A stretch of 64,000 bases of DNA from a virus. The first letter of the stretch is position 1; every line of letters begins with the position of its first letter. Below, piece after piece: positions 1,615 to 63,201 of the stretch. The notes under the pieces were generated by a model. It searched no databases and was not told the origin of the DNA. It saw only the letters and a list, made by a program, of their open reading frames with translations. The translations under genes were made by a program, and so were the position numbers. The stretch is taken from positions 14,983 through 78,982 of the IMG/VR virus record IMGVR_UViG_3300031788_000007; one strand, written 5' to 3'.

Positions 1615-1627
1615 TCCAAATTTTGGA
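1615..1627. repeat. Dispersed palindrome copy 1 (TCCAAATTTTGGA)
   Basis: Directly follows TAG of 1294..1614 and precedes the RBS of 1642. Confidence 0.97.
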
Positions 1628-1641
1628 GCCGAGGAGGGGTT

Positions 1642-1947
1642 ATGGAATGGGTGAAGCGTAGAGTATTCCAGTTTCAAAAAAAAGACCCGTGCCACACGGA
1701 GATTGAGCATGTATGTTTCTTCAGGCTCCGCAGCGACGGGACGATGTGGTATCAGGTGTCGCGGCTCTCAATGGCCGAAATGATTCATCGGCTTCCCGGC
1801 GGGTGGCTACATGATAAGTGGAAGCGGTTCTTGGCAGAGGAAACAAAAGTTCCGAAGGTAACAGTCGAAGAGTTCGATAGAGAGTTCGAGGCTTGCATGA
1901 ACCGTATGCGCGGCGTCGAGGTCGAGTTGATGTTCAAAAACACGTAG
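1642..1947 (+). CDS. Hypothetical protein bracketed by two palindrome copies
   Basis: GAGGAGG RBS; 101-aa ORF. Confidence 0.65.
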   Translation: MEWVKRRVFQFQKKDPCHTEIEHVCFFRLRSDGTMWYQVSRLSMAEMIHRLPGGWLHDKWKRFLAEETKVPKVTVEEFDREFEACMNRMRGVEVELMFKNT

Positions 1948-1960
1948 TCCAAATTTTGGA
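1948..1960. repeat. Dispersed palindrome copy 2 (TCCAAATTTTGGA)
   Basis: Directly follows TAG at 1945-1947. Confidence 0.97.
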
Positions 1961-1977
1961 GTAAGGGGAGGAGAAAG

Positions 1978-2607
1978 ATGCCAGCATTCAAGACGGAATT
2001 TAGCTGTCCGAAGTGCAAGCGTGAAACGGGGCAGTCGAACCAGATTTCAGCCGCCGAGGGAAGGTTGACGTGCCCGGCCAACTCGAATCATCGGTGGGAC
2101 GACACCGCGGCCTTCTACGCAGACGGGCCTCAAATGGAGTTCAAGGTAGGGCCGGCCAAGTTCCCACCTGTTGAGGGGCAGACGCCGATCACCCTGAAGA
2201 TACCCTTGCGGATCAAGACCGATCTATCCGCTCAGTGGGGGAGTGACGAGGCAGTTTCGGCCAGGGTAGCCGACATCCTTTTACAGATGGCCGAGGGCGA
2301 AGTGATGATCCTTGGGATGACAGACAAAGGGCGTCTGTTTGACCGCCTTGGACAGAAGTTCTCAAATTCCAGTGAACTTGTTGGCATAGTCTATGCGAAG
2401 ATGTGTGAAGTAGACGAAGCCAAGGGTGAGCGGGACGCAGCCGTAGAAGACCTAAAGGCTTACGAGTCGAGGTCGCCGGGGAGGGTTATCGTGGATTTGG
2501 GAGACCAGTTCGCAACCGCTCAGGCGAAGGCTAAGGATGCGGAGACCCCACTCAAGCTCTGGATCGAAGAGCGGACACGGATGGCACTTCAAGAGAACTG
2601 GTTTTGA
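1978..2607 (+). CDS. Zinc-ribbon protein with possible ribbon-helix-helix DNA-binding segments
   Basis: CPKC...CPANSNH; TPITLKIP and RVIVDLGD...PLKLWI resemble RHH strands and helices; strong RBS. Confidence 0.6.
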   Translation: MPAFKTEFSCPKCKRETGQSNQISAAEGRLTCPANSNHRWDDTAAFYADGPQMEFKVGPAKFPPVEGQTPITLKIPLRIKTDLSAQWGSDEAVSARVADILLQMAEGEVMILGMTDKGRLFDRLGQKFSNSSELVGIVYAKMCEVDEAKGERDAAVEDLKAYESRSPGRVIVDLGDQFATAQAKAKDAETPLKLWIEERTRMALQENWF

Positions 2608-2618
2608 TAGGAACTCCA

Positions 2619-4624: not shown

Positions 4625-4730
4625 TAATTTTGCAGGCGTGTTAAGAAATCGCTTGACGAAGCACGGACTGCGGATAATGATTCTCACAGGGCAAGAGTAG
4701 CGGTTACCGAGAAATCGGAGAGGCCGCAGC

Positions 4731-4932: not shown

Positions 4933-5002
4933 TTCGCGGCAGTCAGCAGTAAACGGGGGGCGTTAACAGCGCCCCTCCATCACACCTCAAGGGGAGCATC
5001 CA

Positions 5003-7778: not shown

Positions 7779-8450
7779 ATGGCATTTTTGAATTCGTCGA
7801 ATCAACTTATCCAGATCGACACTGGGAACGCACTCACCTACTGCTACAACCCATCTTTGGGGCTCGGCGCGGTGGCTGCCTATTCGGGACTCGGGCAAAT
7901 CCAGGTTCTCGGCCAGAGGTACGTGGGGTATTCCGCGGCATACACTTCCACGAATCCCTACGGATACCCGTCAGCCTCCAACCCGGCTGGCTCTCCGGCG
8001 GTCTACGTACAGGCGAAGTATCTGGCGACTTCGGCACTCTCGCTGGCAAACTGGCAGGCGGCCAATGCTCCGGCGCCTGTGTACTGGACAGACAACACGT
8101 TTACCACGGTCACCGGCATCACCACCGAAGCCTTGGGGGGAACGACTCTCGGGTTGAACTTCCCGGCCGGCTTTATGATGGTCAACTATGCCTCGGCGCC
8201 GAAGTTGACGCTGGCGCAGTTGCTTGGCGGGTATGTGTTGGTGCAGGTGGCCGGTTACCTCAAGGGAGCCTACATTTCAGGCACATCAGCCCCCGGTATC
8301 GGATCTTCGATCATCCCGGTAGCTGGCACCCTGAGCGCGAACTCACTTGCGGCCGGCACGGCCCCAACCTACCGTCCATTCGGCCGGCAACTCACAGCGT
8401 TGGTCAGCACCAACTACTGCGATGTCATGGTCGAGTCCGACAACTTCTAA
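7779..8450 (+). CDS. Capsid decoration/cement-like protein
   Basis: Directly after MCP, A/G/T-rich, GYVLVQVAG motif. Confidence 0.65.
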   Translation: MAFLNSSNQLIQIDTGNALTYCYNPSLGLGAVAAYSGLGQIQVLGQRYVGYSAAYTSTNPYGYPSASNPAGSPAVYVQAKYLATSALSLANWQAANAPAPVYWTDNTFTTVTGITTEALGGTTLGLNFPAGFMMVNYASAPKLTLAQLLGGYVLVQVAGYLKGAYISGTSAPGIGSSIIPVAGTLSANSLAAGTAPTYRPFGRQLTALVSTNYCDVMVESDNF

Positions 8451-9801: not shown

Positions 9802-9814
9802 TCCAAAATTTGGA
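9802..9814. repeat. Dispersed palindrome copy 3 (TCCAAAATTTGGA)
   Basis: Directly follows TAG 9799-9801; its GGAG overlaps the RBS of 9822. Confidence 0.97.
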
Positions 9815-13994: not shown

Positions 13995-14007
13995 TCCAAA
14001 ATTTGGA
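13995..14007. repeat. Dispersed palindrome copy 4
   Basis: Between convergent stops; on the - strand it reads TAG-TCCAAATTTTGGA-G directly after the stop of 14008..14223. Confidence 0.97.
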
Positions 14008-14223
14008 CTATTCTCGGAACGGATCAATCCCCCGCTCTCGCAGGAACACCAGATCCTTCTGAGTGAACTCCAGCAGCGGCGACTCGACAATCACAAACAC
14101 ATCTTCGCAGCGAGGGGCTTCAAATATCCTCAAGCCCTCCTGTGGCCGGTGATCCGAGTTGGGGATGGGTCTAAGGTAGTGGCGTATGCTCATGCGCTTG
14201 CTCCAAGGGAAGAGTCTTCTCAT
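14008..14223 (-). CDS. Small hypothetical protein coupled to def
   Basis: TAATG overlap with the def stop. Confidence 0.55.
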   Translation of the reverse strand: MRRLFPWSKRMSIRHYLRPIPNSDHRPQEGLRIFEAPRCEDVFVIVESPLLEFTQKDLVFLRERGIDPFRE

Positions 14224-14705
14224 TACTGCTTTCCTGCGGCTGTGGCGAACTCTTCCAAGCCCGCTCGTACCGAGAACAGAACCCCGTCCAGATGATCGAG
14301 TTCATGCTGAAACACCCTAGCCTCCAAGTTACGGAGGGAGCCCCAGTGTACGTCTCCAGAGAGCGTCTGTGAGACGAAGTGCAGGTAGGTTGCCCTGCGG
14401 ACGTTCAGGAAGAGCCCAGGCATCGAGAGACAGCCCTCCTCATCGACGGCGCTACCCGTTGCGGCCTCAAGTTGCGGGTTGATGAACGCGAGTGGGTTGT
14501 GGGGCTTCTTGCTGTTGCGAACGTCCATGACGAAGATACGCTTCAATTCCCCGATCTGTGGCGCGGCCAGGCCCACGCCGTCGCTGGAATACATTGTCTG
14601 GAAGAGGTCTTCCACCAGGTCGTTGAGTTGTTTATCGAAAGACTTCACAGGCTCGCAGACGGTGGTCAAGCGGTCGTCTGGAAAAATGATTATTGGTCGT
14701 TTCAT
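14223..14705 (-). CDS. def: Peptide deformylase
   Basis: All three motifs: GVGLAAPQIG, EGCLS, QHELDHLDG. Confidence 0.95.
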   Translation of the reverse strand: MKRPIIIFPDDRLTTVCEPVKSFDKQLNDLVEDLFQTMYSSDGVGLAAPQIGELKRIFVMDVRNSKKPHNPLAFINPQLEAATGSAVDEEGCLSMPGLFLNVRRATYLHFVSQTLSGDVHWGSLRNLEARVFQHELDHLDGVLFSVRAGLEEFATAAGKQ

Positions 14706-15199
14706 CCCCATTCCCCCATGCCGAAGAATATAGCACAGCCGGCATTCCTGCCGGATGAGTGCCAGCAAGAGAGGATGATTTGGTTTGCAAGAATGAGACT
14801 TCGAGGCGGGACTGTGCTGCGCGGAATTTCAAGTGGAGCTGGCTGTTGAAGGAATTGTACACCAAACACACCACGGTCCCCGGAGGCAAGCCGGAGGCCG
14901 TGGTGCAGAAGGAGGGAGAATGAACAACCAGCGGAGTATGCGACCCGAACTCCAGTCGCCGTAGATTGAAGAGTACACCGGGTCAAATAAAAATGCAAAC
15001 ACCAAACCCCTCTTTCGAGGGGCTGGGTGCGCTCTTAGCGAAACTGTCGAGGGATCGGAAAAGAGACGGCGGCCGTGGCGACCACACTCATAAGATACAT
15101 GATTTTAGAAAGTAGTTGCAAATTAAATCGCGTTGAATTACTGTGAATTCGTCGAGGTTGATGCGGAAAATTGAGATGCAGGAAAGTGCCTCTCATTCC

Positions 15200-16472: not shown

Positions 16473-16904
16473 ATGGCAATCACACTAAACTTCGCCTGCA
16501 ACGATCCCGACAACGGGAACTTTGTAGGCCGCTTCGACCGGATGGACTTAGACGCCGGGGATCTTCACATGGAGTTCGAGGGAAGTGAGACTTCAGTTGA
16601 GTTCGACTTCCCTACTCGTGGCGGCTATGGGAACGTCACGGTCGGAGAGAAGCAGACGACCTCGCTGGCATACAAAGAGTGGTATGGGAATTGGTGCTGG
16701 AATGCGGCGTCTTTTACCTGGGCGGAAGCGTTGGAGATCATCAACTATCTTGGCGCTACAGGTGAGTGGAGCATGACCGAGGGGCCTTGCTCTCTGTTTG
16801 ATGCGTTCAACAAGCGTCACAGGATTACACAGACGGAGTGGAAGACTGAGAACGAAGCGGGGAGGGTAGGCTGTGAAAGTTTGGATACTAGAACGCGACC
16901 ATGA
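16473..16904 (+). CDS. Hypothetical protein
   Basis: 143-aa ORF with GAGG RBS; WYGNWCWN motif. Confidence 0.6.
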   Translation: MAITLNFACNDPDNGNFVGRFDRMDLDAGDLHMEFEGSETSVEFDFPTRGGYGNVTVGEKQTTSLAYKEWYGNWCWNAASFTWAEALEIINYLGATGEWSMTEGPCSLFDAFNKRHRITQTEWKTENEAGRVGCESLDTRTRP

Positions 16905-17058
16905 GCCGATCACGACGCTCCGCGATACCCCTGAAGGCACGGCTGCTGCTAGAAGTATCCTCAACAGCCTTCCAACGGGAGAGGATCACTACTACGACGC
17001 AGTTCTTTACGAGCGCATTGAGCCGGGGCCGCGAGTCCAAAATTTGGAGTCACGATGA
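16873..17058 (+). CDS. Small hypothetical protein
   Basis: GGGAGG RBS, GTG start. Confidence 0.5.
   Translation: MKVWILERDHEPITTLRDTPEGTAAARSILNSLPTGEDHYYDAVLYERIEPGPRVQNLESR
17036..17048. repeat. Dispersed palindrome copy 5
   Basis: Inside the 3' end of 16873..17058 (VQNLES); overlaps the RBS of 17055. Confidence 0.97.
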
Positions 17059-25488: not shown

Positions 25489-25501
25489 TCCAAAATTTGG
25501 A
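25489..25501. repeat. Dispersed palindrome copy 6
   Basis: Directly follows TAG 25486-25488. Confidence 0.97.
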
Positions 25502-29999: not shown

Positions 30000-31142
30000 A
30001 TGACACCCTCAAACATCAATTTAACACCTTTCACAAAACTGTGCCGCAAGGGTCTTCACGAGTACGACGCAACCAAGAAGCTCTGTCCTGAATGTTCCCG
30101 AGCCACAAAAGCATCTTGTCAATTGAGGAACAGAGAAAGATATGTAAAAGCCAACAGCGATAGATACTATTCAAACTATGAACGAAGCAAGGCAGAACAT
30201 GCGGAATATAGGAAGAAGAATAGAGAGAAAATCAACGCAAGGCAACTAAAATCTTATCATGAGAACTTAGAGCTAAGGAGAAAACAATCAGCTAAGTATT
30301 GCCAGAAAAACAGGGAACTGGCGGTGTGGAGAGCGATGGTTCTGCGCTGCACGGATACTAAAAATAAACAATATGAGGATTACGGAGCCAGGGGAATCAA
30401 TGTTCACAGCGAATGGCTTGGAGAGAATGGGTATAAGGTTTTTCTCCGAGATATGGGGAAGAGACCAAGCGACAAACATACTCTCGACCGGAAGAATAAC
30501 GATTTAGGGTACACCCCAGACAACTGCCGGTGGGTTTTGCCTATAGTCCAAGGAAGGAACAAAAGAAACAATCACCTTATCGAGTACAACGGAAAAACTC
30601 AATGCTTGTCTGCGTGGGCAGGGGAAGTCGGTGTGGGTTCTTCTACTCTGGCAAGGAGAATAACCTTCTGGGGTATAGATAGAGCCATGACCCAGAAACC
30701 GCGAATTGTGAACCAAGGGTTTCACCGTCAACTATGCGACCGAGGCGCAGCATGGTTACGCGACGAGAAATCGTGCCATACAGTCTTTACCGAGTGCGCC
30801 CGTAACGTGGACGAAAAACCCGACGCAATTGGATGGAGTGGTGAATCTACGTACCTCGTTGAATGTAAGACAACGCGTACCAACTTCTTCGACGATGCCA
30901 AGAAAAAGATGAGGTTACACCCAGATAGAGGTGTCGGTTTATTCAGGTACTATCTAGTCCCAAAAGGCATGGTTCTACCAAAAGACGTTCCTGAAAAATG
31001 GGGACTCCTGTACGATGGAGATGTAGTGCAAATAGTCAAAGAGGCTGTTCGGTTCGATGTGAGAAATATCGAAGCAGAGACGCACATTCTTTCTCCGCGG
31101 CCTGGAAGGTGGAAAAATGGGGCAAACAAATCAACTCCCTAA
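30000..31142 (+). CDS. HNH homing endonuclease fused to a PD-(D/E)XK (MmcB-like) nuclease domain
   Basis: YGARGINV, TLDRKNNDLGYTPDNCRW; EKPDAIGW...LVECKTTR...WGLL; AT-rich. Confidence 0.8.
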   Translation: MTPSNINLTPFTKLCRKGLHEYDATKKLCPECSRATKASCQLRNRERYVKANSDRYYSNYERSKAEHAEYRKKNREKINARQLKSYHENLELRRKQSAKYCQKNRELAVWRAMVLRCTDTKNKQYEDYGARGINVHSEWLGENGYKVFLRDMGKRPSDKHTLDRKNNDLGYTPDNCRWVLPIVQGRNKRNNHLIEYNGKTQCLSAWAGEVGVGSSTLARRITFWGIDRAMTQKPRIVNQGFHRQLCDRGAAWLRDEKSCHTVFTECARNVDEKPDAIGWSGESTYLVECKTTRTNFFDDAKKKMRLHPDRGVGLFRYYLVPKGMVLPKDVPEKWGLLYDGDVVQIVKEAVRFDVRNIEAETHILSPRPGRWKNGANKSTP

Positions 31143-31533
31143 ACCGACATTCATTGGAATTACGCAGGATCATCAACGATTTCTTAGCCAACTGACCGAC
31201 GCGACGAACACCTTGCTTGGGTACAACGGCACGATCCCGATGGTCAACACGCTCGATCTCAACAACAACCCCATTCAAAACGTAGCCGCTCCGGTAGCGC
31301 CCACAGATGCCTTGAACCTCGGGACGGCGGAAGCTAAATACGCTCCATCAGTGACCGGCCCTCAGTTGGATGTGGGAGGGTCGAACTCGTTGAAGGGGGT
31401 GACGTACCTCTACACTTGGAAGAACAAGGGTTTGAGCGTAACGATCACGACGGCGAAGCTGACGGGCGGGGGGACGAACGGGAGTATGACCTTCACTGCG
31501 GGCCTCTTGACCGCGCAGGTCCAAGCCACTTAG
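31117..31533 (+). CDS. Small tail-associated protein
   Basis: LDLNNNPIQNVAAPVAPTDA, TAKLT..GTNGSMTF motifs. Confidence 0.65.
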   Translation: MGQTNQLPKPTFIGITQDHQRFLSQLTDATNTLLGYNGTIPMVNTLDLNNNPIQNVAAPVAPTDALNLGTAEAKYAPSVTGPQLDVGGSNSLKGVTYLYTWKNKGLSVTITTAKLTGGGTNGSMTFTAGLLTAQVQAT

Positions 31534-31553: not shown

Positions 31554-31566
31554 TCCAAAATTTGGA
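31554..31566. repeat. Dispersed palindrome copy 7 (extends to AGTCCAAAATTTGGACT)
   Basis: Intergenic, directly before the GAGGAGG RBS of 31580. Confidence 0.97.
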
Positions 31567-34783: not shown

Positions 34784-34796
34784 TCCAAATTTTGGA
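34784..34796. repeat. Dispersed palindrome copy 8
   Basis: Directly follows TAG 34781-34783. Confidence 0.97.
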
Positions 34797-45500: not shown

Positions 45501-48021
45501 CAAAGGTATGCAGGTGGAGATGTCTGGAGGAGGCAAGGGGTCAGATTGGGCCACTCTCTATCAGGAGAAGCCGAGACGGTGGGAGCCACCTAACAGACCG
45601 TTGACCATCGAAGACCTCAAGATTCGCCGGGCGGTCAATGCGGCGGCCGACAAAGCAGCGGCGAACCCACAGATACCGCACGAAGAGGTCACCATGACGG
45701 CTGCGAGGGCCGAGGAGGTCGCCAAAGCCGCGCCAGAGGGAGTCGACAAAGAGGCGGCGGGTAGAGATGCCGTTGGCGGGCACCTGAAGGGCCTTGGCTA
45801 CGTCCAAGACCCTCTCACTGGCGAGTGGAAGACCCCAGAGAAGATTGAGCCGGCGCCGCCCAGCGGAGAGATCGAGGCTGCCAATCGCTCAGTCGCCAAC
45901 CGACTTGTCGGATTCACGTTAAGCCAAGAGCAGAACATCCTCTCAGAAACAAGGCGCATGGGAGTGCCAGAACTCGGGCGGCAAATTGTCGGTATGGGGC
46001 GCTCATACTCCGGGCTTGTAAAAAATCATCTAGCGGACCTGCGCAATTCCCTATCTACAATCATGCGAAACAATGGTCTGAACCCGCACAATGAGAAGGT
46101 GATGCGTGACATCTTCGACGTTGTGATGGGGAAGAGGGCCGTTGCCGATCCGCGAGTCAACAAGGGCGCAGAAGAAGTGCGTGTTTTGATGGGAGACATC
46201 CGCGAGAAGGGAGCCGCTGGCGGGTTGGCGGTGCGGACTCCAGATGGAAGAATAGTGCCGTGGGCGGATTTTCAGAACGATCCGAGCTACATGCCGCGGA
46301 TAGCGGACTGGAACGCGAAGTTCACGGACGCGGAAGGCAAGACGTACACCCTGAAGGAGATCATGGGCGGAACCTTCGGTGAGATCAGGGCGAAGGAGTT
46401 ACTGGCAAAGAAACTCAAAGAAGACGGCAATCCCATGTCTGCCGACAGAGCCTATCAACTCATCAAGCGTGAGCGGCTACAGGCACCCGTGCAGGGCAAT
46501 ATCCAGAGAACGAACGAGGTGAACTTCCCGTTTATCAGGAAGGACTATGGGGCGATCGACAACTACTTCAAGCAGTATTCACGGGCAATGGCGACCGAGA
46601 AAGTGTTTGGCTCGGACCTAAGAAAACTGCAAAAGGAGATTGGGAAGATCCCGAACAAGCAATTCAGGACAGATGTAGAGCAGATGTTCGGCTATATGTT
46701 CACGCCGCAAAACTGGGATTCGGACCTGGGGGCGGTCTACAACGTCCTGTCCGCAGCGGAGACGGCCACAAAGATGTTCCCGTTCTCTGTAACAAAGGTG
46801 TTGTTCCATGCTGGGAACGCGCCAATGATTATCGGCAAGACAGGCCACTACATGCCCGTCCTGAAGGCTGCATTCAAGGCGGCAACTGACCTCAAGGCCG
46901 TCAAAGAGAACGCCTATTTGGTTGGCACGATCGCGCATGGTGTCGATCCGGCAGTGATGTATATGCCGGATACGAAGACACAGCACGGCCTTTTCAAGTG
47001 GACTGGATTTGAGTACATCTACAACGTGGCGCGAGCCATTGGCGGAGAGTCTGCGCGGGTCTACCTCGACCAGTACGCCGCGAACGACCTGAAGAAAGGC
47101 GGCAATACTGAGGTGCGGGCGCGAAGACTTCTGAAGAACTCGCTGCTCATTGGAGATCACGCCATTGACGAGTTCTTGAGAACAGGTAAGTGGGACCGCG
47201 ATAGTTACAGGCTTGCTCAGGTTGCATTTGCCGACGAGTCACTATACTCGGAAAATCCAATGCAGATGCCGGAGTTTGCGCGTAGGAGAATCGCAGGAGA
47301 GGGATTAAGCTCCACGGACAAGTATCTGAATATGGGCCTCCGGGCGTCCTATTCTCTCCAGTCGTTCACCGCCAAGACCTACTCAATGCTGAAAGAGCAT
47401 CTCTACGATGAAGTGGTACTCCACCATAATCTTCGTCCGCTCGCTTACGCGATGGTTGTGTCGCCGGTTATCGGGCAAATGCTGCAAGGAGTATCCTCGG
47501 CCGCAAAGGGCGGGGTACACCGTTTGGCGCAGTACGGCTTAGATAGGCCGCATACCGAGGATGCCTGGGATAAGTGGCTTTCGCAATTCTCTGGGATGAA
47601 GGACCATCCCGCTGCAACCTTTCTGAAACTCTATGTCGACGGTCTTTGCGCACAGTGGGCTCTTGAGCGGACGAAGCGGCTGGCGGATGCGTTGTTTAAC
47701 CTGTCTATAGATGACAAGCCTAGCCTAAAATCTGCAAAAGATACCGGGATGTATTTGTTGAACGATGAGGTTGAGCAGGATATAGGCCCCATCTGGACAG
47801 ACACGGTAATGCGACCTTTTATTGACTTCCCAGCGGCCGAGATACAATCGGAAGCAGTAAGCGAGTCGCAGGAGCATCACGGCAAGCCAAGCAGTTTTTG
47901 GGATCGAACGGGGAAAAACGTTGTGCGGGAATTGAGGGATACTGTGCCTGTACTCAGACAAGAGCCGGATGTGGAAGAATATCTCGCGCCGAAAAAGAGT
48001 GGAAAGTGGCAGGTTCCTTAG
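36535..48021 (+). CDS. Giant polyvalent ejection protein: DdrB-like ParB domain, zincin HExxH, Strawberry-notch-like SF2 helicase, C-terminal helical region
   Basis: VVGGNRR (~40890), TFIHEFAH (~42590), ASVAGSGKT (~43970), DLVIADES (~44230), YVSATP, AAGGIGINLQD (~45060), QSLARTWR. Confidence 0.85.
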   Translation: MAVLDQTEAQIPVGLTPIPLGQAPSSEAKIPAGLTPIPLGSQQSSPNFGVKSQTQATHAVTPPVDVKSSIPAGLTPIPKEDSHVDAFMAGIRKPAALRQQVYDYTVGSGYNADQGRQRQNEYDYAIKNGMNPQRAQEFALGMQFEGGTPKYNLTDQEKSDLYGKAKQAAEGFKSGQQKTIESHFLGESLLPGDDETYRQNIDPDEYARNYVKGYTYARSQGWDEGKAQEYATSDAASQWMTRAGEWIDPKWHSVKSAILNVIPGISKPEERAENPFFATNQGYRENQFHVYHEAAWLDEHVGKVAGSVDAGLGNVVNGFSTPGMAALMVASEGQGLLARGGIGAAEEVETANLATRALGRVARAGGRQLGRSAAASEEIDSAQALRAAENAEKAIRAIRDARLPVSAQKVARTFNKLVTVGFTAQMAQGSAEQLEQAAKTAFPGEGKDGDSALAVEYAVEGLVSGLMAVQGGNHLRHEHLLTSDLNSKTAEMYGPQKLSDVGGLHEGPRQNAATKFGDLDPYRQAAVIQRLIEDDPKYKAAEDASEKEQKRLAKKIAYRYNTALQQAWNPNAVDRMVRVIDNHRAANEWYGARQKAEDEARKHYLDQITKLIDLHKQDKADEEELVKAEAERRAAAREGRPVRKTVDAQKREESRKVTLTNAAQIAEHRQGVVDARDVADKETAEQERSEAQDSTTNSQKEWDDRYARVYGMHARNNPDWSMPRLHGETLDIVGERPKEDKQGELRHPDEVTDDQGYVSYRSQVFGGEEHHFGVAQTPDGKWGVYRKTPDGIEYLGAGGIFDGQPQESYLAPNEETAKALAQITSLRVNADYALEEHGTTPEREAERKQLRDLEHSLVDGTITGEQARKAAGLPEEAQEAQAKEKANHEIEAARAGALNGPLHGRTKAQYEDEFLAGLEEAGWEPETIEAMIDTLPLQLRMEAENNLHYVGRSGDWIASKKGVTWVLDSKGMLQPDDGMSAPIPLMKNGRYSTQAIDLSMSGRVGFGQRSWEDAKVEEAKEREANQQLENLVGNVADELQRAIELSKQNAGLQMEAGELPLERPAPKPRSRFAPPVEGQMAESPERETDRAVQEGHEAIQAEQRAFDEAWITFMAEDLAANHETPWQLIERVAKNSGMTPQEVLALQLERLAPTDTVDGRIQRLKAGDTITDKMGLPWVVRADRNGTLYLRKGQGARIHVNKFKPSDDVRRIVGTGEVQPAPGPRWTPEDVRKAAYEPAYISRRNEVIEEVKQRETGEIKEHPPATPEVAERQAVAAEDRETQVNDAAVAATAAAVDPPPKATDKEIDEAISKAEELRKVTEAAARQAAAARGRTAGPGEYPQKAPITSKRVPGRAWAVGHDGYIQTIASKIPMHRELVKLNQLTPSFRWNGNMLERVTEYPEQMQDVPPDEATRSQLLADAQPVRYDVDQFLDPGYGPERGPSIVDIGGDVVGGNRRLLRMLKYLELIHGDKEALAAFRAKMAEYAGKNGMVYPEGDEIYIPVRMLDEPIGTIAKATELGHLFNKKASHGIDENAKSITYGRMLYEAQRTEEALGRNGVLDRIADEFNRAETPRDAMANKPGFFANIVRNELGIGGEDQSDWFNKNPKGEYEFLSTNGKEKLEKALLATVLKNPSTIDALGSSTAYDSLLKSIGPLTRLRAVPDKDIISVIEEAISATATTERKRVDGDSPRVRWNKTFGEREFFSDEKPLDEPGRMVEAIWRALHDRKTTRFKNALNDYLVGEGTQRGFFDPAEHGLKTPADLFNAAFEDELKDVRDSRGLQLDEAKSGKFKGDNASGMRTFLDTLSWELTQDQFDAALENRDNYGDESVEDAKRSEEGKPPQEAPKPEGVSKKMFITKQDERDLKGLGWKQEQINAMKPEEAQEILSLGKQAPKGFKPPEPPAPKPEADLSAAKAEKGYVTPDELEKFISDHPATADHAPEIMRTARMMAEYVFDSDPPEGVEKKDALAWVLEQRVAKLAYEEKGKGRGSYSDPEIEKGIGTRILKLTKASDETTFIHEFAHVIFPMLSQEDMRAIDTITGEKGEHWKHGDPLRGEAYKTVSEKFAHGLEKFLRDENPTGFSAEVKKVLAKVKEMFQAAYLRFRSDPLSTFNLSEDAKEVFANMFHIEDLDPADDFRKQREEARKADAKQKKGMVKPEAALHPIQQLAKDLGPKPVQILESIDGSVEDSSGERVDPSKPMAAFVYDDEEHAAQAYLKAAEEGSGVAGVEFVQTKDGKYAVRFNVKAKVPKDILYQDAQEKHPGLRLEDMEAKLKTTTSPILKKFLETQIGRLKAEIRNEPRPQVEPGLAKQAIAEVKRGTEGRKTDTGRAGVSDLRGVPDGNPGDAKQAGVGRLSRPPIMGMPGHASAGGAADRNRPGGGSSQPVNLANVTPVRLQPFERGRGTPVGILAGEKFDEKVWRDGLKRAGLPENMPAPTVTLSPEVARTLKYAGQKQIVQTVLSALEQGDGAVIASVAGSGKTWTEMGVVKETILRNPDAKVLVITMNRGLLEEGDDAVRQVAKNGYDLKVETDILDKPPEPGVYGATYQRLLNNSIYAQTQWDLVIADESGAARNWYRDENQQGKLLKAVMDNAKKGVYVSATPFHSPNEYGYAEKLNLWPKGGFEDWIKNNFAHEKIGDKVVAKLDPAKQAKLREQMVERGQFISQQISYDGFSVHFGVVPVTDVVERKLDRIHQGIAVMKRELLKQGKKGLSERVSAFEATYTKAYLERSRLPEAIEVAKKARAQGWQVAIFSETTSEDLFRRPVGPKEEPGTYRLLDEETGGQISRIMPEFPNIADELKAEFGDEMGDYSGVGNTDAQREEAKQAFLKGKKKVLYTSYAAGGIGINLQDKDGDKPRISIFLGPPYSGILLEQSLARTWRLGVKSNARAVFLATDSEPDIRLMATKIGPRMRALSAAVLGDRDSLASVMTNYTDEEKMREHQDMMAFDQGNEVKVDAQGFQVRSKRKVNFDNWSSITFPNAEEAKNKGMQVEMSGGGKGSDWATLYQEKPRRWEPPNRPLTIEDLKIRRAVNAAADKAAANPQIPHEEVTMTAARAEEVAKAAPEGVDKEAAGRDAVGGHLKGLGYVQDPLTGEWKTPEKIEPAPPSGEIEAANRSVANRLVGFTLSQEQNILSETRRMGVPELGRQIVGMGRSYSGLVKNHLADLRNSLSTIMRNNGLNPHNEKVMRDIFDVVMGKRAVADPRVNKGAEEVRVLMGDIREKGAAGGLAVRTPDGRIVPWADFQNDPSYMPRIADWNAKFTDAEGKTYTLKEIMGGTFGEIRAKELLAKKLKEDGNPMSADRAYQLIKRERLQAPVQGNIQRTNEVNFPFIRKDYGAIDNYFKQYSRAMATEKVFGSDLRKLQKEIGKIPNKQFRTDVEQMFGYMFTPQNWDSDLGAVYNVLSAAETATKMFPFSVTKVLFHAGNAPMIIGKTGHYMPVLKAAFKAATDLKAVKENAYLVGTIAHGVDPAVMYMPDTKTQHGLFKWTGFEYIYNVARAIGGESARVYLDQYAANDLKKGGNTEVRARRLLKNSLLIGDHAIDEFLRTGKWDRDSYRLAQVAFADESLYSENPMQMPEFARRRIAGEGLSSTDKYLNMGLRASYSLQSFTAKTYSMLKEHLYDEVVLHHNLRPLAYAMVVSPVIGQMLQGVSSAAKGGVHRLAQYGLDRPHTEDAWDKWLSQFSGMKDHPAATFLKLYVDGLCAQWALERTKRLADALFNLSIDDKPSLKSAKDTGMYLLNDEVEQDIGPIWTDTVMRPFIDFPAAEIQSEAVSESQEHHGKPSSFWDRTGKNVVRELRDTVPVLRQEPDVEEYLAPKKSGKWQVP
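36669..36681. repeat. Dispersed palindrome copy 9 (in CDS, SPNFGV)
   Basis: GAG-TCCAAATTTTGGA-GT. Confidence 0.97.
43070..43082. repeat. Dispersed palindrome copy 10 (in CDS, VQILES)
   Basis: CAG-TCCAAATTTTGGA-GT. Confidence 0.97.
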
Positions 48022-48068: not shown

Positions 48069-48242
48069 ATGGAGAAAGCGATAACTTTTGTGGAAGGAAC
48101 GCAAACATGGATTGGCAACCTTACAGAGAAGCGCGACAGGCTTCTTCGGGACGCCGAGCGTGTCAGCAAAGCAATCGCCTTTCTAGAGGCGCACCCGGAA
48201 TTGGTAGAACTGTATACGGAGTATGTGGAAATAATGCCCTAA
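48069..48242 (+). CDS. 57-aa hypothetical protein MEKAITFVEG...
   Basis: GAGGAGG RBS preceded by hairpin GTCTTCA-GATT-TGAAGAC. Confidence 0.55.
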   Translation: MEKAITFVEGTQTWIGNLTEKRDRLLRDAERVSKAIAFLEAHPELVELYTEYVEIMP

Positions 48243-48892
48243 GTAGAAGACTGGGAAGTGGGCCGTTCCTTAACCGACTCCAAAATTTGGAGTACCTGTT
48301 GCGCCAACTTGACCTTTTGAGCGAAGTCGGCTTTCTGTGATTCAGTGACGATCATTGAAAGCCGCTGCTGGAGGGCTTCATCGGCGCGGAACTCTTTATC
48401 GGTAGGGATGAGTGAGACTTCAGCCGACAGGCGGGAGCGGAAGAGTTCAATCATCTCGGAGAGCAAGAATGGCGCGAGTTGTTTATGGAGAGTCTTTTTA
48501 GACCTTTTGAGCATCGTTTCTCGCACAAACAACGGAGAGTAGAGAAAGTGTTTTTTATCAACCCGCACAGAAGGAATAGCGTGTCTCAGTACGTATCGTC
48601 CCATCATTATCTGGCTCATGCCGAGGAGTTCGGCACACTCGCCCTGAGTGAGTAATGCTTTTTCAGTGAGGCCGGCGGGAACGGGGAAGTGGCGCCTGTG
48701 GATGATGGCGCCCAGGCGAAGCTGCTCTGCGTACTCGGGGGTGGGGTCGAGGTAACGCTTATCGGGGTTCTTCCCAATGACAGCCAAGCAGCCCTTCCGT
48801 TCGAGGGTACGGACCTGTCTAGGGGACAGCCGTAGGCGGTCACAGATGCCGGAGAGGGAGAGCCATGTCTGTTCAGAGGATGGGTTGTGCAT
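48239..48892 (-). CDS. Tandem MerR/excisionase-like HTH protein
   Basis: LSLSGICDRLRLSPRQVRTLERKG and LTQGECAELLGMSQIMMGRYV. Confidence 0.7.
   Translation of the reverse strand: MHNPSSEQTWLSLSGICDRLRLSPRQVRTLERKGCLAVIGKNPDKRYLDPTPEYAEQLRLGAIIHRRHFPVPAGLTEKALLTQGECAELLGMSQIMMGRYVLRHAIPSVRVDKKHFLYSPLFVRETMLKRSKKTLHKQLAPFLLSEMIELFRSRLSAEVSLIPTDKEFRADEALQQRLSMIVTESQKADFAQKVKLAQQVLQILESVKERPTSQSST
48279..48291. repeat. Dispersed palindrome copy 11 (ACTCCAAAATTTGGAGT, in CDS LQILES)
   Basis: Read directly. Confidence 0.97.
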
Positions 48893-49082
48893 TCTTGCGC
48901 CTCCGGGGATGGGATGCCGCGGCCATTGCGGAGAACGTATCCGAAGGCAGGTTGCGCTTCTCTGCGCTGACGGAGCCGAGCTTGCGGAAGAAGTCAGGAT
49001 CGGCTTTCGATAGCTTGACCTTCGGCTTGGAGGGCTTTTCCTTGACGAGCGGTTTGATGGTTAAAGTACGGATATGCTTCAT
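48873..49082 (-). CDS. Small basic protein
   Basis: GAGG RBS on the - strand; DPDFFRKLG. Confidence 0.55.
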   Translation of the reverse strand: MKHIRTLTIKPLVKEKPSKPKVKLSKADPDFFRKLGSVSAEKRNLPSDTFSAMAAASHPRRRKNAQPIL

Positions 49083-49105
49083 GAAAACATAATACCTCAA
49101 TATGC

Positions 49106-49135
49106 TTGACAGCGGAACCGCTGATAGGTTAACGT
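49106..49135 (+). promoter_or_regulatory. Rightward promoter with operator-like inverted repeat in the divergent switch region
   Basis: TTGACA-18-TAACGT with CAGCGG-AA-CCGCTG at 49110-49123. Confidence 0.6.
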
Positions 49136-49158
49136 CATTCAACAGTGGGGGAAATCGG

Positions 49159-49359
49159 ATGATTGGATACTACGACAAGGGCAATATTGCCGCGCAATTG
49201 CGAGAGAAGCTGGAGGGCCGTACCCAGGCCGACCTAGCGGCTGAGATGGAGATTACTCCTCAATATCTCAGCGATGTCTTGAGCGGCCGTCGTGACCCAG
49301 GTAAGGCAATTCTAAAGTACCTCGGGCTGAAGGTTGGGTACGTGCGGGACGAGAAGTAG
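49159..49359 (+). CDS. Cro/XRE-like HTH regulator
   Basis: TQADLAAEMEITPQYLSDVLSGRRDPG. Confidence 0.88.
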   Translation: MIGYYDKGNIAAQLREKLEGRTQADLAAEMEITPQYLSDVLSGRRDPGKAILKYLGLKVGYVRDEK

Positions 49360-50841: not shown

Positions 50842-50854
50842 TCCAAAATTTGGA
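50842..50854. repeat. Dispersed palindrome copy 12
   Basis: 5 nt after TAG 50834-50836, before the RBS of 50865. Confidence 0.97.
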
Positions 50855-51901: not shown

Positions 51902-52315
51902 ATGGCGATGTTCACAGTAGACGGCGCCAAACTGACGGCCGCTGGAGTAGAGATGGAACAAGAGTACGAGTTCCGAGTAATGCGCTGCGGAGTTCTCAAG
52001 CCAGAGGTGAGGATCACCGTCATGGCTGAGACTCTTCAGGAAGCGCAGGAGAAGGCAAAGGCGTATCTCCGCAGGAACGAGCACGTCGACAAGGGGGGCT
52101 GGAGGGCAGCAAGGCGGGCCTTCACTGTCGACGGGGCTAAATTGACGGCACTGCGCATTGAAGCGGGTTTGTCAATGGAGGAAGTAGCGGCGAATTTGGG
52201 GTGTAACAAGTCGAATCTGAGCCGTTGGGAGCGGGGGGTTGTGCAGCCGTCAGAAAGGGCTATTCTGGAACTGGTAGTCCTATTCAAGCAATGCGATTTT
52301 GTTAAGGAGAGGTGA
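51902..52315 (+). CDS. XRE HTH protein with duplicated N-terminal decapeptide
   Basis: LRIEAGLSMEEVAANLGCNKSNLSRWERG; FTVDGAKLTA occurs twice. Confidence 0.8.
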   Translation: MAMFTVDGAKLTAAGVEMEQEYEFRVMRCGVLKPEVRITVMAETLQEAQEKAKAYLRRNEHVDKGGWRAARRAFTVDGAKLTALRIEAGLSMEEVAANLGCNKSNLSRWERGVVQPSERAILELVVLFKQCDFVKER

Positions 52316-53916: not shown

Positions 53917-54156
53917 ATGCCAGTAGATGTAGAGGGTAAGGTAAAGAGGATCATCGCCGCGCAATTGCTGGTGGACGATGACGAAGTGACGCCGGGAGCG
54001 AACTTAAAGGACGACCTGGGCGCCGACTCACTTGATGTGATTGAGTTGGTTATGCAAGTCGAGGAAGAGTTCGACCTTGAGATTCCCGACGAAGACGCAG
54101 AAAACGTGCGAACAGTGAAGGACATCTTGGACTACGTTAATACCAGGGTGAAGTAA
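53917..54156 (+). CDS. acpP: Acyl carrier protein
   Basis: [31 protein letters not shown]. Confidence 0.95.
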
Positions 54157-54276: not shown

Positions 54277-54510
54277 ATGGCAATGGAATGGACAGATGTA
54301 GAGAGTTCGCAGATCGTGCGGATTGGATATGATGCGGAGACGCTGAAGGCCCAGGTCGCGTTTAAGGACAAAAGATCTGGCGGCGTGCAATCAACTTACG
54401 AGTACGACCAAGTGGGCCAGGACGTGATCGACCGGATCATCAACTCAGACAGCGTGGGAAGAGCCTTCGCGGCTGAACTCAAGTATGGCTTTAATTATCG
54501 TCGGCTCTAG
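54277..54510 (+). CDS. KTSC-domain protein
   Basis: VESSQIVRIGYD...YEYDQV...SDSVGRAF. Confidence 0.85.
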   Translation: MAMEWTDVESSQIVRIGYDAETLKAQVAFKDKRSGGVQSTYEYDQVGQDVIDRIINSDSVGRAFAAELKYGFNYRRL

Positions 54511-54728: not shown

Positions 54729-54741
54729 TCTAAATTTTGGA
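54729..54741. repeat. Dispersed palindrome copy 13, one mismatch (TCTAAATTTTGGA)
   Basis: 2 nt after TAG 54724-54726, before the RBS of 54756. Confidence 0.85.
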
Positions 54742-56414: not shown

Positions 56415-56786
56415 ATGGCCGGCAAGAGCAACGTCCAAACCGCAATAGAGAGAGCAAGGGAGAAGTACGGGGAAGACCCTCCCTTGCTCCAGCGGGTATG
56501 TTTGGTTCACGGAATATCGGTGAGGGACTTCGCTGCGATCTTCAAAATATCGAAGACACATGCAGCCGAGATTATCGCTCACCGGAAGTTGCCCGACTTA
56601 GAGTTGGCGGTGAGGATCAGCCGTTACTGGGAAGTCGAGGTTGAGGAGTTGTTTGGATGGAGAATTGACGACGACGGCGCACGAAGACCTTTGTTGGTGA
56701 TTGATCCATCTACGGGGCAGGTACGGAAGTTGGTGGGGCAGAATCGGACTGGGGCGATTGATGTGGCGTTAGGGGGACGGCATTGA
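56415..56786 (+). CDS. XRE HTH protein
   Basis: SVRDFAAIFKISKT...PDLELAVRIS..VEELF. Confidence 0.75.
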   Translation: MAGKSNVQTAIERAREKYGEDPPLLQRVCLVHGISVRDFAAIFKISKTHAAEIIAHRKLPDLELAVRISRYWEVEVEELFGWRIDDDGARRPLLVIDPSTGQVRKLVGQNRTGAIDVALGGRH

Positions 56787-57180: not shown

Positions 57181-57813
57181 ATGAAGATAATCATTGACAG
57201 TGAATTACTCGAAGGCTTGACGTACCGCGGCGTTCTCGCGCTTGTGGCGGTGACGGCGCTTGGGGACGGGCTCTGGACTACGGCGCAGTTGGCACAGGCG
57301 GTGTCCTGCAACTCATCGCTGATGCTTGAGGGGATGGGAGAGCTTCACACGGCGGCGCCGGGGCTGGTAGCGAAGCAGGTGAAGATGAAGTGGCCTGTGG
57401 GGACCGGAGTAGCAAACGAATTTCAACTCCAAATTTTGGACTCGGCCGCGAGCCGGAGGACGGACTTCCTCGACGACGTGAAGGCTATCTTTGAGTGGGG
57501 GAACAAGGGGTTACAGTTCACGATGAACGCGGCAGACGGCCTAGCCGTGCAGCGGTGGCTCAAGGAGCGCAAGGACTGGACTCGGGAGATGTGGAGGGTG
57601 GCTTTGCGGAATCGGTTCTTGAGTGAGGGGATCGTGAAGTCGCAGCCGATTCATCTGTGGCTTGGGCGGTTGGTGGAGTATCTGGAGGCACCGTTGGACA
57701 GGTTCGGGAAGTTGATGCCGAACGGGGTGGGAGGGAAGCATGGTGCGGCAATTGGAACAGAAAACAGCAATCGTCAGGCGCGAGAGATCGCAATTGCAGA
57801 ATTGTCCAACTGA
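57181..57813 (+). CDS. Putative replication initiator-like protein
   Basis: N-terminal wHTH-like segment; position upstream of loader-like gene and dnaB. Confidence 0.5.
   Translation: MKIIIDSELLEGLTYRGVLALVAVTALGDGLWTTAQLAQAVSCNSSLMLEGMGELHTAAPGLVAKQVKMKWPVGTGVANEFQLQILDSAASRRTDFLDDVKAIFEWGNKGLQFTMNAADGLAVQRWLKERKDWTREMWRVALRNRFLSEGIVKSQPIHLWLGRLVEYLEAPLDRFGKLMPNGVGGKHGAAIGTENSNRQAREIAIAELSN
57428..57440. repeat. Dispersed palindrome copy 14 (in CDS, LQILDS)
   Basis: AC-TCCAAATTTTGGA-CT. Confidence 0.97.
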
Positions 57814-61959: not shown

Positions 61960-61969
61960 GGAGGGGAAT

Positions 61970-62518
61970 ATGGGGATGATTTTCATTGGGGTGGACCCAG
62001 GACTCGGAGGATGCCTCTGCGTACTCGATCCAGACAAAAACGAGGTGCAGTTCTTTGATGCGCCTGTCTTGGAGATGGTGGTCAACAAGAAGAACAAGGG
62101 CGTTCTCGACGCCTACCGGATGGTCCAGATACTCAAGGACGTGTCGGCTGGCCGGCAGGTGATGGTGAGTATCGAGAAGGTCCAAGCGATGCCGGGCGGG
62201 GGAGAGCGGACGATGGGCGCCACCTCGGCTTTCAACTTCGGCATGGGCTACGGGCTTTGGTTGGGGATACTGGCGGCGCTGGAGCTTCCGTACCAGACTG
62301 TCCATCCGGCCACATGGAAGGCGAGAATGATGTCGGGGTGCTCAAAGGAGAAAGACGCAAGCCGGGCCGTGGCAATGCAGCACTACCCGAGGGCGGCGAA
62401 GGAATTGGCGCGAAAGAAGGACGACGGCAGAGCCGATAGCGCCCTTATTGCCAGATGGGGTTGGCTGACCTACGGCGGCCAGCCGGCGGCCAAGCCGAAG
62501 GAAGGGTTGTTCGACTGA
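61970..62518 (+). CDS. RuvC-like Holliday junction resolvase
   Basis: IGVDPG, IEKV, SAFNFG, P.TWK, DGRADS. Confidence 0.88.
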   Translation: MGMIFIGVDPGLGGCLCVLDPDKNEVQFFDAPVLEMVVNKKNKGVLDAYRMVQILKDVSAGRQVMVSIEKVQAMPGGGERTMGATSAFNFGMGYGLWLGILAALELPYQTVHPATWKARMMSGCSKEKDASRAVAMQHYPRAAKELARKKDDGRADSALIARWGWLTYGGQPAAKPKEGLFD

Positions 62519-62580
62519 GGTTCACTATTGCTCATTCAATTGAATACGAGGCAGGTGTATAGTGTTTTTGGAGGCGAACC

Positions 62581-63129
62581 GTGGACTTAGACGAACTCAG
62601 CACAAGGGCGCTTTTGGTACGCATCCTACGCGAACTAGAAGAGAATGAGCGCCGGAGCGTAAAGATCGAGGATGAGCTGGCCTACGTCGCCCACACCGTT
62701 CGCAAAATCGAGCGCGAAGTGCGCCCAAAACCTCAACCCCTAACCGCCTCAGTGGCAAACATCTTCATAGGAGATATTCCAATGGCAGACAACGTTCTCG
62801 TTCTCAATGTCGGTCAGACCGCGATCGACACCCTCACTCCCCGCCTCGCCGATGGCATTACGCCTTCTGGCGGTGTAATCAGCAACGTCGTTGTGACGTT
62901 TAGCGACCCTTCGGCAACCGCCGCGGTTCAACCCGACAACACGATCCTGTTTACGGGCGTTGCGGCCTCAGTCGGCCCGATCAGCGGCTCGACAGCTCTC
63001 ACCATCACCGACACGGACGGAGTAACATCGACGTGGAATGTTCCTTTCACGGTCCAGGTGAACGCTCCAATTCCCCCGGCGCAGCTCACCCAGAGCGTGG
63101 CGAACGTGTTCTCGGTGCCAATCCCCTAG
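62581..63129 (+). CDS. Coiled-coil plus Ig-like protein
   Basis: N-terminal heptads, beta-rich C-terminus, LT(A/Q)SVAN(I/V)F repeated. Confidence 0.65.
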   Translation: MDLDELSTRALLVRILRELEENERRSVKIEDELAYVAHTVRKIEREVRPKPQPLTASVANIFIGDIPMADNVLVLNVGQTAIDTLTPRLADGITPSGGVISNVVVTFSDPSATAAVQPDNTILFTGVAASVGPISGSTALTITDTDGVTSTWNVPFTVQVNAPIPPAQLTQSVANVFSVPIP

Positions 63130-63145
63130 TTCCTCCCCGCACGAA

Positions 63146-63186
63146 GGAGCGGCTCCGGCTAACCAGTCGGGGCCGTTTTCCTTTTC
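63146..63186 (+). terminator. Intrinsic terminator
   Basis: GCGGCTCCGGCT-AACC-AGTCGGGGCCGT then TTTCCTTTT. Confidence 0.75.
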
Positions 63187-63188
63187 AC

Positions 63189-63201
63189 TCCAAAATTTGG
63201 A
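63189..63201. repeat. Dispersed palindrome copy 15
   Basis: AC-TCCAAAATTTGGA-CT directly after the terminator. Confidence 0.97.

Follow-up and report, generated by a model that had tools for sequence, protein, structure and literature searches.

A dispersed palindrome under DNA-level selection in a clade of peat phages, with an orphan ParB/KorB-family protein as its candidate reader

Why would a phage carry the same short palindrome about every 4 kb along its genome, between genes and inside them alike, and what would read it? The question is raised by the 64,000-nucleotide stretch of DNA analyzed here (the window), bases 14983-78982 of the 78,982-bp IMG/VR phage contig IMGVR_UViG_3300031788_000007 (hereafter G000), across which 15 copies of the 13-bp palindrome TCCAAAWTTTGGA are dispersed. 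As set out below, these copies are held in place by selection on the nucleic acid, and the leading candidate for the protein that would read them is an orphan member of the ParB/KorB family encoded by related phages. G000 is linear and estimated to be 81% complete, and the phage genome is roughly 100 kb in size. The contig has a G+C content of 55%, carries nearly all of its genes on the + strand and encodes the gene set of a tailed phage (large terminase, portal, major capsid protein), together with an exonuclease, RecT, a DnaB helicase and several helix-turn-helix (HTH) proteins. All DNA and RNA sequencing runs that hold its sequence are peat or permafrost metagenomes. A megablast search with 10 kb of G000 against 50,697 phage records returned no match, and neither did Pfam for ten proteins from its left 15 kb.

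A dyad held in place at the level of the DNA

A search allowing at most one mismatch found the 15 copies exactly where the original prediction had placed them, 14 of them perfect and one (54729, TCTAAA...) with a single mismatch; the gaps between them, given earlier as 0.3-8.5 kb, measure 333-8453 bp. In 100 dinucleotide-preserving shuffles of the window the motif occurred 0.07 times on average and never more than once. The whole 79-kb contig holds 17 exact copies and two more with one mismatch, 19 in total, and none of a reversed, non-complemented control pattern. When both halves of all copies are aligned, the A at -8 and the T at +8 are retained in 34 of 38 half-sites, so that the unit reaches beyond the 13-bp core and is a 17-bp dyad, A-B-TCCAAA-W-TTTGGA-V-T, in which A never occurs at position ±7 (nor T on the other side) and the center is mostly W. 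A second lineage of relatives has a 19-bp perfect palindrome, GAT-core-ATC. Lone half-sites occur at the frequency that a Markov model expects, neither enriched nor depleted, which argues that selection acts on the full dyad only. The two halves are equally conserved, with no asymmetry of the L5 stoperator type, and the mild G bias, seen at -7 only, is due to TAG stop codons. A symmetric dyad of 17-19 bp would fit a dimeric DNA-binding protein, as had been proposed.

Is the motif a peculiarity of one contig? Relatives were gathered by a pattern scan of IMG/VR combined with a search for the capsid protein (60-95% capsid identity), and the motif is present in all 20 capsid-defined relatives, at 8-25 copies per genome, with the control pattern in none. 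The conservation in related phages on which the original prediction had staked its case is therefore found throughout the relatives examined. They include two complete genomes with terminal overlaps, G006 (103.7 kb, 8-9 copies) and G007 (97.2 kb, 24-25 copies), and one that is 91% complete, G008 (88.6 kb, 20-22 copies). The base at -7 tracks phage lineage, being G or C where the capsid protein is at least 84% identical to that of G000 and T in relatives at 65-73% identity. A literature search for the motif sequence itself gave nothing relevant.

The surroundings of the sites reveal what selection acts on. In G000, the stop codons that abut a site are TAG in nine of nine cases, compared with 38% TAG among stops in general, and it is this TAG that provides the A-G at -8/-7; in the other lineage, TGA or TAA followed by one nucleotide (T) provides A-T at the same two positions. 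Spacers that hold a site have a median length of 30-50 nt, other gene junctions one of 3-12 nt, so that such a spacer exists essentially for the site and the ribosome-binding sequence. The same precision is seen within coding sequence. The copy at 57428-57440, in gene 57181-57813 (LQILD), has orthologous counterparts in G002, G005, G007 and G008, and in these five genomes xTC CAA AxT TTG GAx persists where the sequence to either side has diverged strongly: CAA (32% of the codons for Gln) in 5/5 and TTG (about 25% of those for Leu) in 4/5, with a central codon that varies between Ile, Asn and Ser. In G008, the orthologous site has decayed, its TTG replaced by the synonymous TTA, and 34 nt downstream there is a new exact copy.

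The five in-gene copies of the window had been said to lie in different frames and to show thereby that the constraint is on the DNA and not on the protein. The five peptides were read correctly, as was the assignment of two copies (36669 and 43070) to a giant gene, but the frames were not: four of the five copies share one frame (xTC CAA AWT TTG GAx, translated as Q-I/N-L-E/D), which is probably the most tolerable one. The conclusion itself stands on the fitted stop codons and the retained rare codons, and the synonymous-site conservation that had been suggested as a check is there at the orthologous in-gene copy. The constraint acts on the nucleic acid, not on the protein. That the motif is a double-stranded DNA site for a dimeric protein is, in our estimation, probable.

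Placement, spacing and transcription of the sites

Of 115 sites in eight genomes, 55 precede a called start by no more than 60 nt, in most cases by 6-19 nt; of the others, 21 are intergenic and 39 fall within genes. These genomes are 85-92% coding, and the sites are about 5-fold enriched in non-coding DNA. Terminator-like hairpins stand directly beside some sites, on either side, and no run of T follows the sites. The common denominator of placement is any free non-coding spot, with no fixed relation to promoters, starts or terminators. A role as roadblocks at convergent junctions, which fits G000 and G005, was rejected, as it fails in G006-G008.

The distances between the sites are themselves informative. 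They are more even than random placement would give in G000 (coefficient of variation, CV, 0.48; p=0.0008), G007 (CV 0.57; p=0.002) and G004 (CV 0.47; p=0.03), with values of CV 0.54 (p=0.055) in G006, CV 0.72 (p=0.08) in G005 and CV 0.93 (not significant, with one 16.5-kb gap) in G008; since the genomes are related, these tests are not independent of one another. The contrast becomes stronger under a null model that draws from gene starts. The two copies in the 11.5-kb giant gene fill what would otherwise be the longest gap, and this avoidance of long gaps points to each site serving the few kilobases around it.

Six copies of the window directly follow a TAG stop, as the original prediction had it. 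Five of these are on the + strand: 1615-1627, which abuts the TAG of 1339-1614, 14 nt ahead of the ATG at 1642; 1948-1960, which abuts the TAG of 1642-1947, 17 nt ahead of the ATG at 1978 of the gene before portal; 9802-9814, 7 nt ahead of the ATG at 9822, a site whose own GGAG is the sole Shine-Dalgarno sequence and which is syntenic in G004, G007 and others; 25489-25501, 17 nt ahead of the ATG at 25519; and 34784-34796, 11 nt ahead of the ATG at 34808 and directly behind gene 34025-34783. The copies at 1615 and 1948 flank a 101-aa gene that G004 does not have. The sixth, at 13995-14007, is located at a convergent junction and abuts the TAG of a - strand open reading frame (14008-14193). This frame sits downstream of a peptide deformylase gene (14223-14711, - strand; Pfam E=2e-43), which is placed amid an otherwise + strand structural region and is kept in G004 and, weakly, in G006-G008; a similarity search for look-alikes of the peptide deformylase, done with the host in mind, gave no useful taxon.

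Four further copies are intergenic. The one at 31554-31566 is separated by 20 nt from the stop of 31117-31533 and by 13 nt from the ATG at 31580, where a gene (31580-32383) with homologues in G004 and G002 begins. The copy at 50842-50854, syntenic in G004 and G002, lies 5 nt past a TAG and 10-16 nt before the start of the exonuclease gene, and the one-mismatch copy at 54729-54741 follows a TAG stop by 2 nt and precedes the ATG at 54756 by 14 nt. The replication/recombination region also contains an acyl-carrier-protein-like gene (PP-binding, E=5e-16) at 53917-54156 and a KTSC-domain gene at 54277-54510. The last copy, at 63189-63201, is found 9 nt past a terminator-like hairpin (63146-63179). 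Outside the window, 6.5 kb before its start, the one-mismatch copy TCCAGAATTTGGA at genome position 8433-8445 lies 3 nt past a stop codon, with a strong terminator-like hairpin immediately behind it, a layout that recurs in G005, G007 and G008.

Within genes, the copy at 17036-17048 falls in the last seven codons (VQNLESR, then the stop) of 16873-17058, and its GGAG is the Shine-Dalgarno sequence for the ATG at 17055. The copies at 36669-36681 (codon 45, SPNFGV frame) and 43070-43082 (codon 2179, VQILES frame) are part of the giant gene (36535-48021), which lies in the virion-gene region and encodes 3,828 aa. The sole domain of this protein that Pfam recognizes is a Sno/ResIII-type helicase at approximately residues 2447-2932, into which its single DxDGD falls; its N-terminus has repeated IPAGLTPIP-like peptides, and it has no PDB sequence match to solved structures. 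The copy at 48279-48291, syntenic in G004, G002 and G005, forms C-terminal codons (LQILES) of a - strand gene for a 217-aa protein. Its neighbor on the - strand (48873-49082) encodes a basic protein of 69 aa that is found clade-wide at 49-78% identity and whose motif, DPxxYxKIGxxSAxKR...FSxMAxxSH, we take to be reminiscent of KGG-repeat general stress proteins. Between this gene and a Cro-like HTH_3 gene, the real start of which is probably 49160, lies a 78-bp A/T-rich divergent control region (49083-49159) with TTGACA and a separate 6-2-6 palindrome, CAGCGGAACCGCTG; it looks like a classic switch operator, seemingly unrelated to the dispersed motif.

Are the sites transcribed, and could they be promoters themselves? 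Where the GGAG of the motif is the sole Shine-Dalgarno sequence (at 9802 and 17036, and in relatives), the copies must be transcribed, and metatranscriptome contigs that span the copies at 9802 and 13995 are a weak hint in the same direction. This RNA evidence consists of Logan contigs, from which no starts, ends or strand can be read for the sites and whose cover leaves out 1615 and 1948; gaps in this cover carry no meaning. A sigma-70-like promoter, TTGACG-17-AATGAT, is located at 4653-4681; RNA contigs of three peat metatranscriptomes begin at 4709-4729, the fragment end at 4709 being marked by adapter read-through, and this is likely the start of the highly covered capsid operon. In Pfam searches of six-frame translations of G000 and G002-G008, two of which are complete, we found no T7-type RNA polymerase (a search that had no positive control), no sigma-70 region 2 and no tyrosine integrase, and the deviant Walker A motif of ParA (KGGxGK[ST]) is absent from every frame of the eight clade genomes. 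As the RNA contigs begin behind a sigma-70-like promoter and away from the palindrome, and neither a phage polymerase nor a phage sigma factor was found, the phage probably relies on host polymerase for its transcription, and a promoter function of the palindrome is unlikely.

Which protein could read the palindrome?

The original prediction offered as readers a ParB-like domain of the giant protein, one of the HTH/RHH proteins or a protein encoded outside the window. The first of these has to be given up: neither Pfam nor a family-specific hidden Markov model (HMM) detects a ParB-like domain in the giant protein. The last agrees with what the more complete relatives show, where a gene for a ParB/KorB-fold protein occupies the segment that G000 misses. 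G006, G007 and G008 share a conserved protein of 275-290 aa, which first came to notice in G006 as a ParB_N match below threshold. A large protein collection contains 88 relatives of it, many with PF02195, on contigs of 88-103 kb, and some of them have been named Spo0J or ParB by JGI. Solved chains of ParB, Noc and Spo0J match the family profile at E=1e-6 over the N-terminal domain and the HTH. In the AlphaFold (AF2) model (pLDDT 85), an N-terminal domain with the ParB fold is joined by a DNA-binding HTH domain and by helices at the C-terminus; Foldseek matches this model to ParB, Noc and KorB at E ~1e-7, the top TM-score being that to the KorB-KorA-DNA complex of plasmid RK2, 8QA9 (0.62 by target). 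In all three genomes, the gene (hereafter parB) sits between homologues of the right and left ends of G000, that is, in its missing ~19%. Copies of the motif lie close by: 30-39 nt upstream of the parB ATG in G007, G012 and G029, and 90-180 nt past the parB stop in G007, G012, G015 and G029, so that in lineage B parB is bracketed by sites.

Does a private palindrome travel with the parB gene in other phages? The complete peat phages G026, G027 and G028 have a ParB homologue and share almost nothing else with the clade. TCCAAANTTTGGA is absent from all three, and each has an odd-spaced palindrome of its own: G028 (54 kb) has six dispersed copies of TGACAGSCTGTCA where 0.12 are expected, G026 (95.6 kb) has 13 dispersed copies of AATAATNATTATT where 0.04 are expected, and G027 (73 kb) has two tandem copies, at 70.55 kb, of the 17-bp 8-1-8 palindrome AGTCTCACGGTGAGACT. 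Contig G031, which encodes a different ParB_N protein, contains four copies of TGCTTANTAAGCA, and no over-represented dyad was found in four control contigs that lack ParB. Agrobacterium phage OLIVR4 (MT234341.1) has ten copies of TACAAATNATTTGTA at 26.4-40.9 kb, all inside promoter spacers, between TTGAC(-35)-like and TAnnnT(-10)-like boxes, and thus an operator-containing promoter set; its gp32, annotated as hypothetical, is a 29% homologue of the ParB-like protein.

We favor the reading in which the ParB-like protein is the reader and the system is KorB-OB-like, and give it a probability of about 0.45. In such a system, a dimeric phage-encoded protein would read the 17-19-bp dyad as double-stranded DNA. 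The leading candidate, the orphan ParB/KorB-family protein for which no ParA partner was found, would by analogy with KorB and its operator OB load at the approximately 20 sites of each genome. There it would remain or, given a working nucleotide switch, move outward by sliding or spreading across a few kilobases, and from the sites it would silence or organize the whole genome; a site every 3-4 kb would give full coverage. The sites would mostly occupy minimal spacers between a stop codon and a ribosome-binding site because these are the only non-coding places available, and in a long gene with no spacer a site would be written into the coding sequence, in the most tolerable frame. The binding of the site by this protein, its sliding and silencing as the outcome are what we infer from the comparison with KorB.

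A number of observations weigh against this reading. A parB gene was detected neither on G000, giant protein included, nor on the other incomplete contigs (Pfam and the unfiltered family-specific HMM), and its presence in G000's own phage would follow from synteny only. In G006 no site adjoins parB, and the genome has its 8-9 sites only; G008 is without even spacing. The GERR box reads G-x-C-R, with C and R invariant, and ENLQR reads x-N-x-x-L, so that the boxes for cytidine triphosphate (CTP) are not intact and CTP-dependent sliding is doubtful. The ParB proteins of G006 and G028 are 59% identical, yet their palindromes differ, and those within the motif clade are 41-48% identical, with a variable recognition helix; HTH proteins with better-conserved recognition helices exist in the clade. 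Curvibacter phage PCA1 and Klebsiella phage Kpn BU9, which encode 27-30% homologues, have no repeated palindrome, and with OLIVR4 on the other side the association of ParB and palindrome is suggestive, not clean. A palindrome of its own in each phage, covarying with one DNA-binding protein, had been proposed as a check; the private palindromes of G026-G028 lend this some support, and the similarity of the ParB proteins, which fails to track the motif, lends it none. An attempt to read ParB specificity from the recognition helix was abandoned, no residue pattern separating the motif groups. The specific contacts of KorB lie outside its helix-turn-helix, and the mismatch between ParB similarity and motif is therefore not decisive either way.

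Other readers have to be considered as well. The sites could be operators for another dimeric HTH regulator of the phage, whose binding throughout the genome would obstruct or silence host RNA polymerase, in the manner of stoperators though at symmetric sites; we regard this as unlikely, even if three candidate proteins are at hand. These are an XRE-type HTH protein (51902-52315, + strand) with a recognition helix, NKSxxSRWE, that every lineage retains, a 123-aa protein (56415-56786, + strand) with an HTH-like stretch, ISKxHAE, that is likewise retained in every lineage, and the clade-conserved 217-aa protein (48239-48892, - strand), with two tandem MerR/Xis-like winged helices and C-terminal helices (model pLDDT 74) and weak Foldseek matches to RacA, BldC, TraN and ScpB. 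The constancy of the first two stretches matches that of the invariant core, and XRE/Cro-type dimers typically read dyads of 14-18 bp; the XRE gene opens the rightward early operon in G005-G008, G005 has a site in the divergent spacer of this gene, and sites lie within transcription units, between genes. The 217-aa protein in turn resembles RacA, BldC and MerR-type domains, and the lytic phage D29 uses a MerR-like repressor (PMC12266134). However, the control region of the XRE gene itself has no site in G006, G007 and G008, the 217-aa protein varies strongly in its second HTH, a roadblock would add nothing at those sites that adjoin intrinsic terminators, and the private palindromes of unrelated phages that share parB would be left unexplained. 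A host protein, such as a nucleoid-associated protein or a global regulator exploited by the phage, would account for a core that is invariant although phage DNA-binding proteins are only 40-55% identical, but the flanking bases covary with phage lineage. Furthermore, among the matches listed, a scan of 185,579 species genomes gave scattered single copies, mostly in AT-rich taxa, and no genome in which several copies stood close together; a single locus had similarity to a G006 gene, and the host was not identified. This makes a host reader very unlikely.

Three alternatives remain. As an RNA-level element, the motif would form a short hairpin 5' of ribosome-binding sites and serve translational coupling, mRNA processing or stability. 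That nearly half of the 115 sites are found shortly before a start codon, that several copies supply the sole Shine-Dalgarno sequence, that metatranscriptome contigs weakly hint at transcription and that the stem can be extended to 8-9 bp in lineage B all agree with it. But such a hairpin would not need so invariant a sequence; none of 16 two-mismatch sites in ~550 kb of related genomes has a stem-compensating change, ±7 is mismatched in 12 of 15 copies of the G000 lineage where ±8 is conserved, and the 8 of 12 single-base variants that keep pairing on the mRNA strand are not significant. With about one-third of the sites in genes and some beside terminators or at convergent junctions, we judge an RNA element quite unlikely. 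If the sites were hot-spots of recombination at which gene cassettes are shuffled, or places where virion DNA is nicked or cleaved in a programmed manner, this would explain the 101-aa gene between the copies at 1615 and 1948, the extra genes of G000 (relative to G004 and G002) that sit directly behind a site, and the ends of homology blocks at five of ten sites as opposed to 8 of 55 control junctions (G000 versus G004); the phage has RecT, exonuclease, endonuclease VII and HNH proteins, and the authors of the Cluster O study saw indels between the repeats of those mycobacteriophages (PMC4351075). Yet pairs within lineage B show no such enrichment (4/25 versus 17/113, 4/17 versus 12/67, 4/16 versus 13/69), alignments naturally seed at an invariant 13-mer, and nicking both strands of a palindrome would break the genome. 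Arms of 6-9 bp are, moreover, too short for a stable cruciform, and a role in DNA transactions appears even more improbable than a host reader. The least likely option in our view is that the sites are promoters or recognition sites of an unrecognized phage RNA polymerase, hidden for instance within the 3,828-aa virion protein, in the manner of the N4 hairpin promoters. T7 has 17 promoters, similar in copy number and spacing, the content of the giant protein is largely unrecognized, and sites often lie directly upstream of genes. Against this, the site is symmetric, the giant protein shows a helicase domain only, the eight genomes gave no sigma factor and no T7-like polymerase (the latter in the search that had no positive control), and the strongly transcribed capsid operon begins behind a sigma-70-like promoter with no palindrome; genes that use the GGAG of the motif as their Shine-Dalgarno sequence also require transcripts that start upstream of the motif. 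Jointly, the RNA-level, promoter, recombination or nick, and host-factor readings account for a clear minority of the probability.

Relation to known site systems

We therefore return to the KorB-OB-like reading of protein-binding DNA sites, which from the comparisons made here appears the most likely one for the site system. KorB of the IncP-1 plasmid RK2 binds the 6-1-6 palindrome TTTAGCGGCTAAA and is a CTP-dependent clamp that slides up to 1.5 kb and silences distant promoters (PMC11790492). The original prediction had drawn this analogy from the shape, number and placement of the sites, and the orphan ParB/KorB-fold protein of the complete relatives speaks in its favor. Both systems have a 13-bp 6-1-6 palindrome in a dozen or more copies over a replicon of 60-100 kb, near and far from promoters. 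The reader of OB is a ParB-family protein with an N-terminal nucleotide-switch fold and an HTH, and so would be the candidate reader here, the protein of the relatives, whose top structural match is the KorB-KorA-DNA complex itself. Unlike OB, the sites described here belong to a phage and not a plasmid, the gene of the candidate is off this contig, neither a ParA/IncC nor a KorA-like partner was found, the GERR box has degenerated, and most sites fill the narrow space from a stop codon to a ribosome-binding site, where no promoter is visible.

Mycobacteriophage L5 has stoperators of 13 bp, about 24-30 copies of which lie in short intergenic spaces or overlap stop or start codons and are bound by gp71. 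The likeness to them that had been suggested holds for size, copy number and placement, but L5 sites are asymmetric, oriented with transcription and bound by the monomeric immunity repressor of a temperate phage, whereas the sites here are symmetric, and no integrase, immunity module or ParA was found in the eight genomes. In Bacillus subtilis, Noc and RacA bind dozens of dispersed 14-bp palindromes (NBS and ram, respectively) and organize DNA rather than regulate promoters. Their readers, an orphan ParB paralogue (Noc) and a MerR-like winged helix with a coiled coil (RacA), are among the structural matches obtained here, but these systems are chromosomal and tied to cell division or sporulation, and no membrane-targeting or DivIVA-type partner is evident in our phages.

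The closest parallels in kind come from lytic actinophages. The palindrome had been presented as an undescribed cis-site system, which overstates its novelty, as dispersed dyads of 17-18 bp in such phages were described in 2015 and 2020, with no function assigned to them (PMC4351075, PMC7302621). Cluster O mycobacteriophages such as Corndog carry more than 30 copies of a 17-bp dyad, TGTTCGGNNNCCGAACA, in a genome of ~70 kb; the function of the repeats is unknown, and the authors inferred a dimeric binding protein and doubted a role in transcription initiation (PMC4351075). These phages encode a ParB-like protein, gp90, and have neither an integrase nor parAB (PMC4351075). The invariant arms, the A/T-rich center, the placement in short spacers and in coding sequence, the restriction to a clade and a lifestyle that is not obviously temperate are all shared with the phages studied here. 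The differences are a 6-1-6 or 8-1-8 layout here as opposed to 7-3-7 there, another sequence, probably another host phylum, and the even spacing and flank-fitted stop codons, which the Cluster O reports do not have; the likeness is one of kind, not of homology. Microbacterium phages of Cluster EG have 8-10 copies of the 18-bp inverted repeat GATCAACCNNGGTTGATC 14-22 bp upstream of starts (PMC7302621). Here too, the repeats occupy short intergenic spacers before starts in lytic phages with no repressor or integrase and are kept despite diverged surroundings (PMC7302621), but they are confined to one genome arm, have an even-numbered spacer and include no reported in-gene copies. The palindrome of G000 and its relatives falls into this class of dispersed lytic-phage dyads (17-18 bp, many copies, clade-specific, in spacers and some coding sequences), membership being descriptive and not that of a homology family.

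What would follow from these parallels? Dispersed perfect palindromes in lytic phages have been on record since 2015 and are unexplained; with its fitted stops, frozen rare codons, a decayed site replaced nearby and even spacing, the present clade offers the sharpest evidence so far for strong DNA-level selection on such sites, and it names a concrete candidate reader, an orphan ParB/KorB-fold protein whose gene is flanked by sites. If the link to ParB is true, the long-range silencing by a sliding clamp known from RK2 would extend to phages, and gp90 of Corndog would offer a cultivable system in which to test the Cluster O puzzle directly. We can offer, as a tentative extension, that virulent phages of ~100 kb adopted a KorB-like orphan ParB as a whole-genome switch, which would load on private palindromes, about 20 of them at even distances, and divide the whole chromosome into zones, silence it or position it, in a module that recurs in unrelated phages and may explain the Cluster O repeats. 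If the link is false, the sites are still a clade-wide regulatory or organizational code and a marker for this group of peat phages. Either way, the palindrome is a new instance of a described but unexplained kind, already on record in the Cluster O mycobacteriophages, and its new features are a DNA-level constraint of this strength, sites that are evenly spaced and an association with a KorB-like orphan ParB that recurs.

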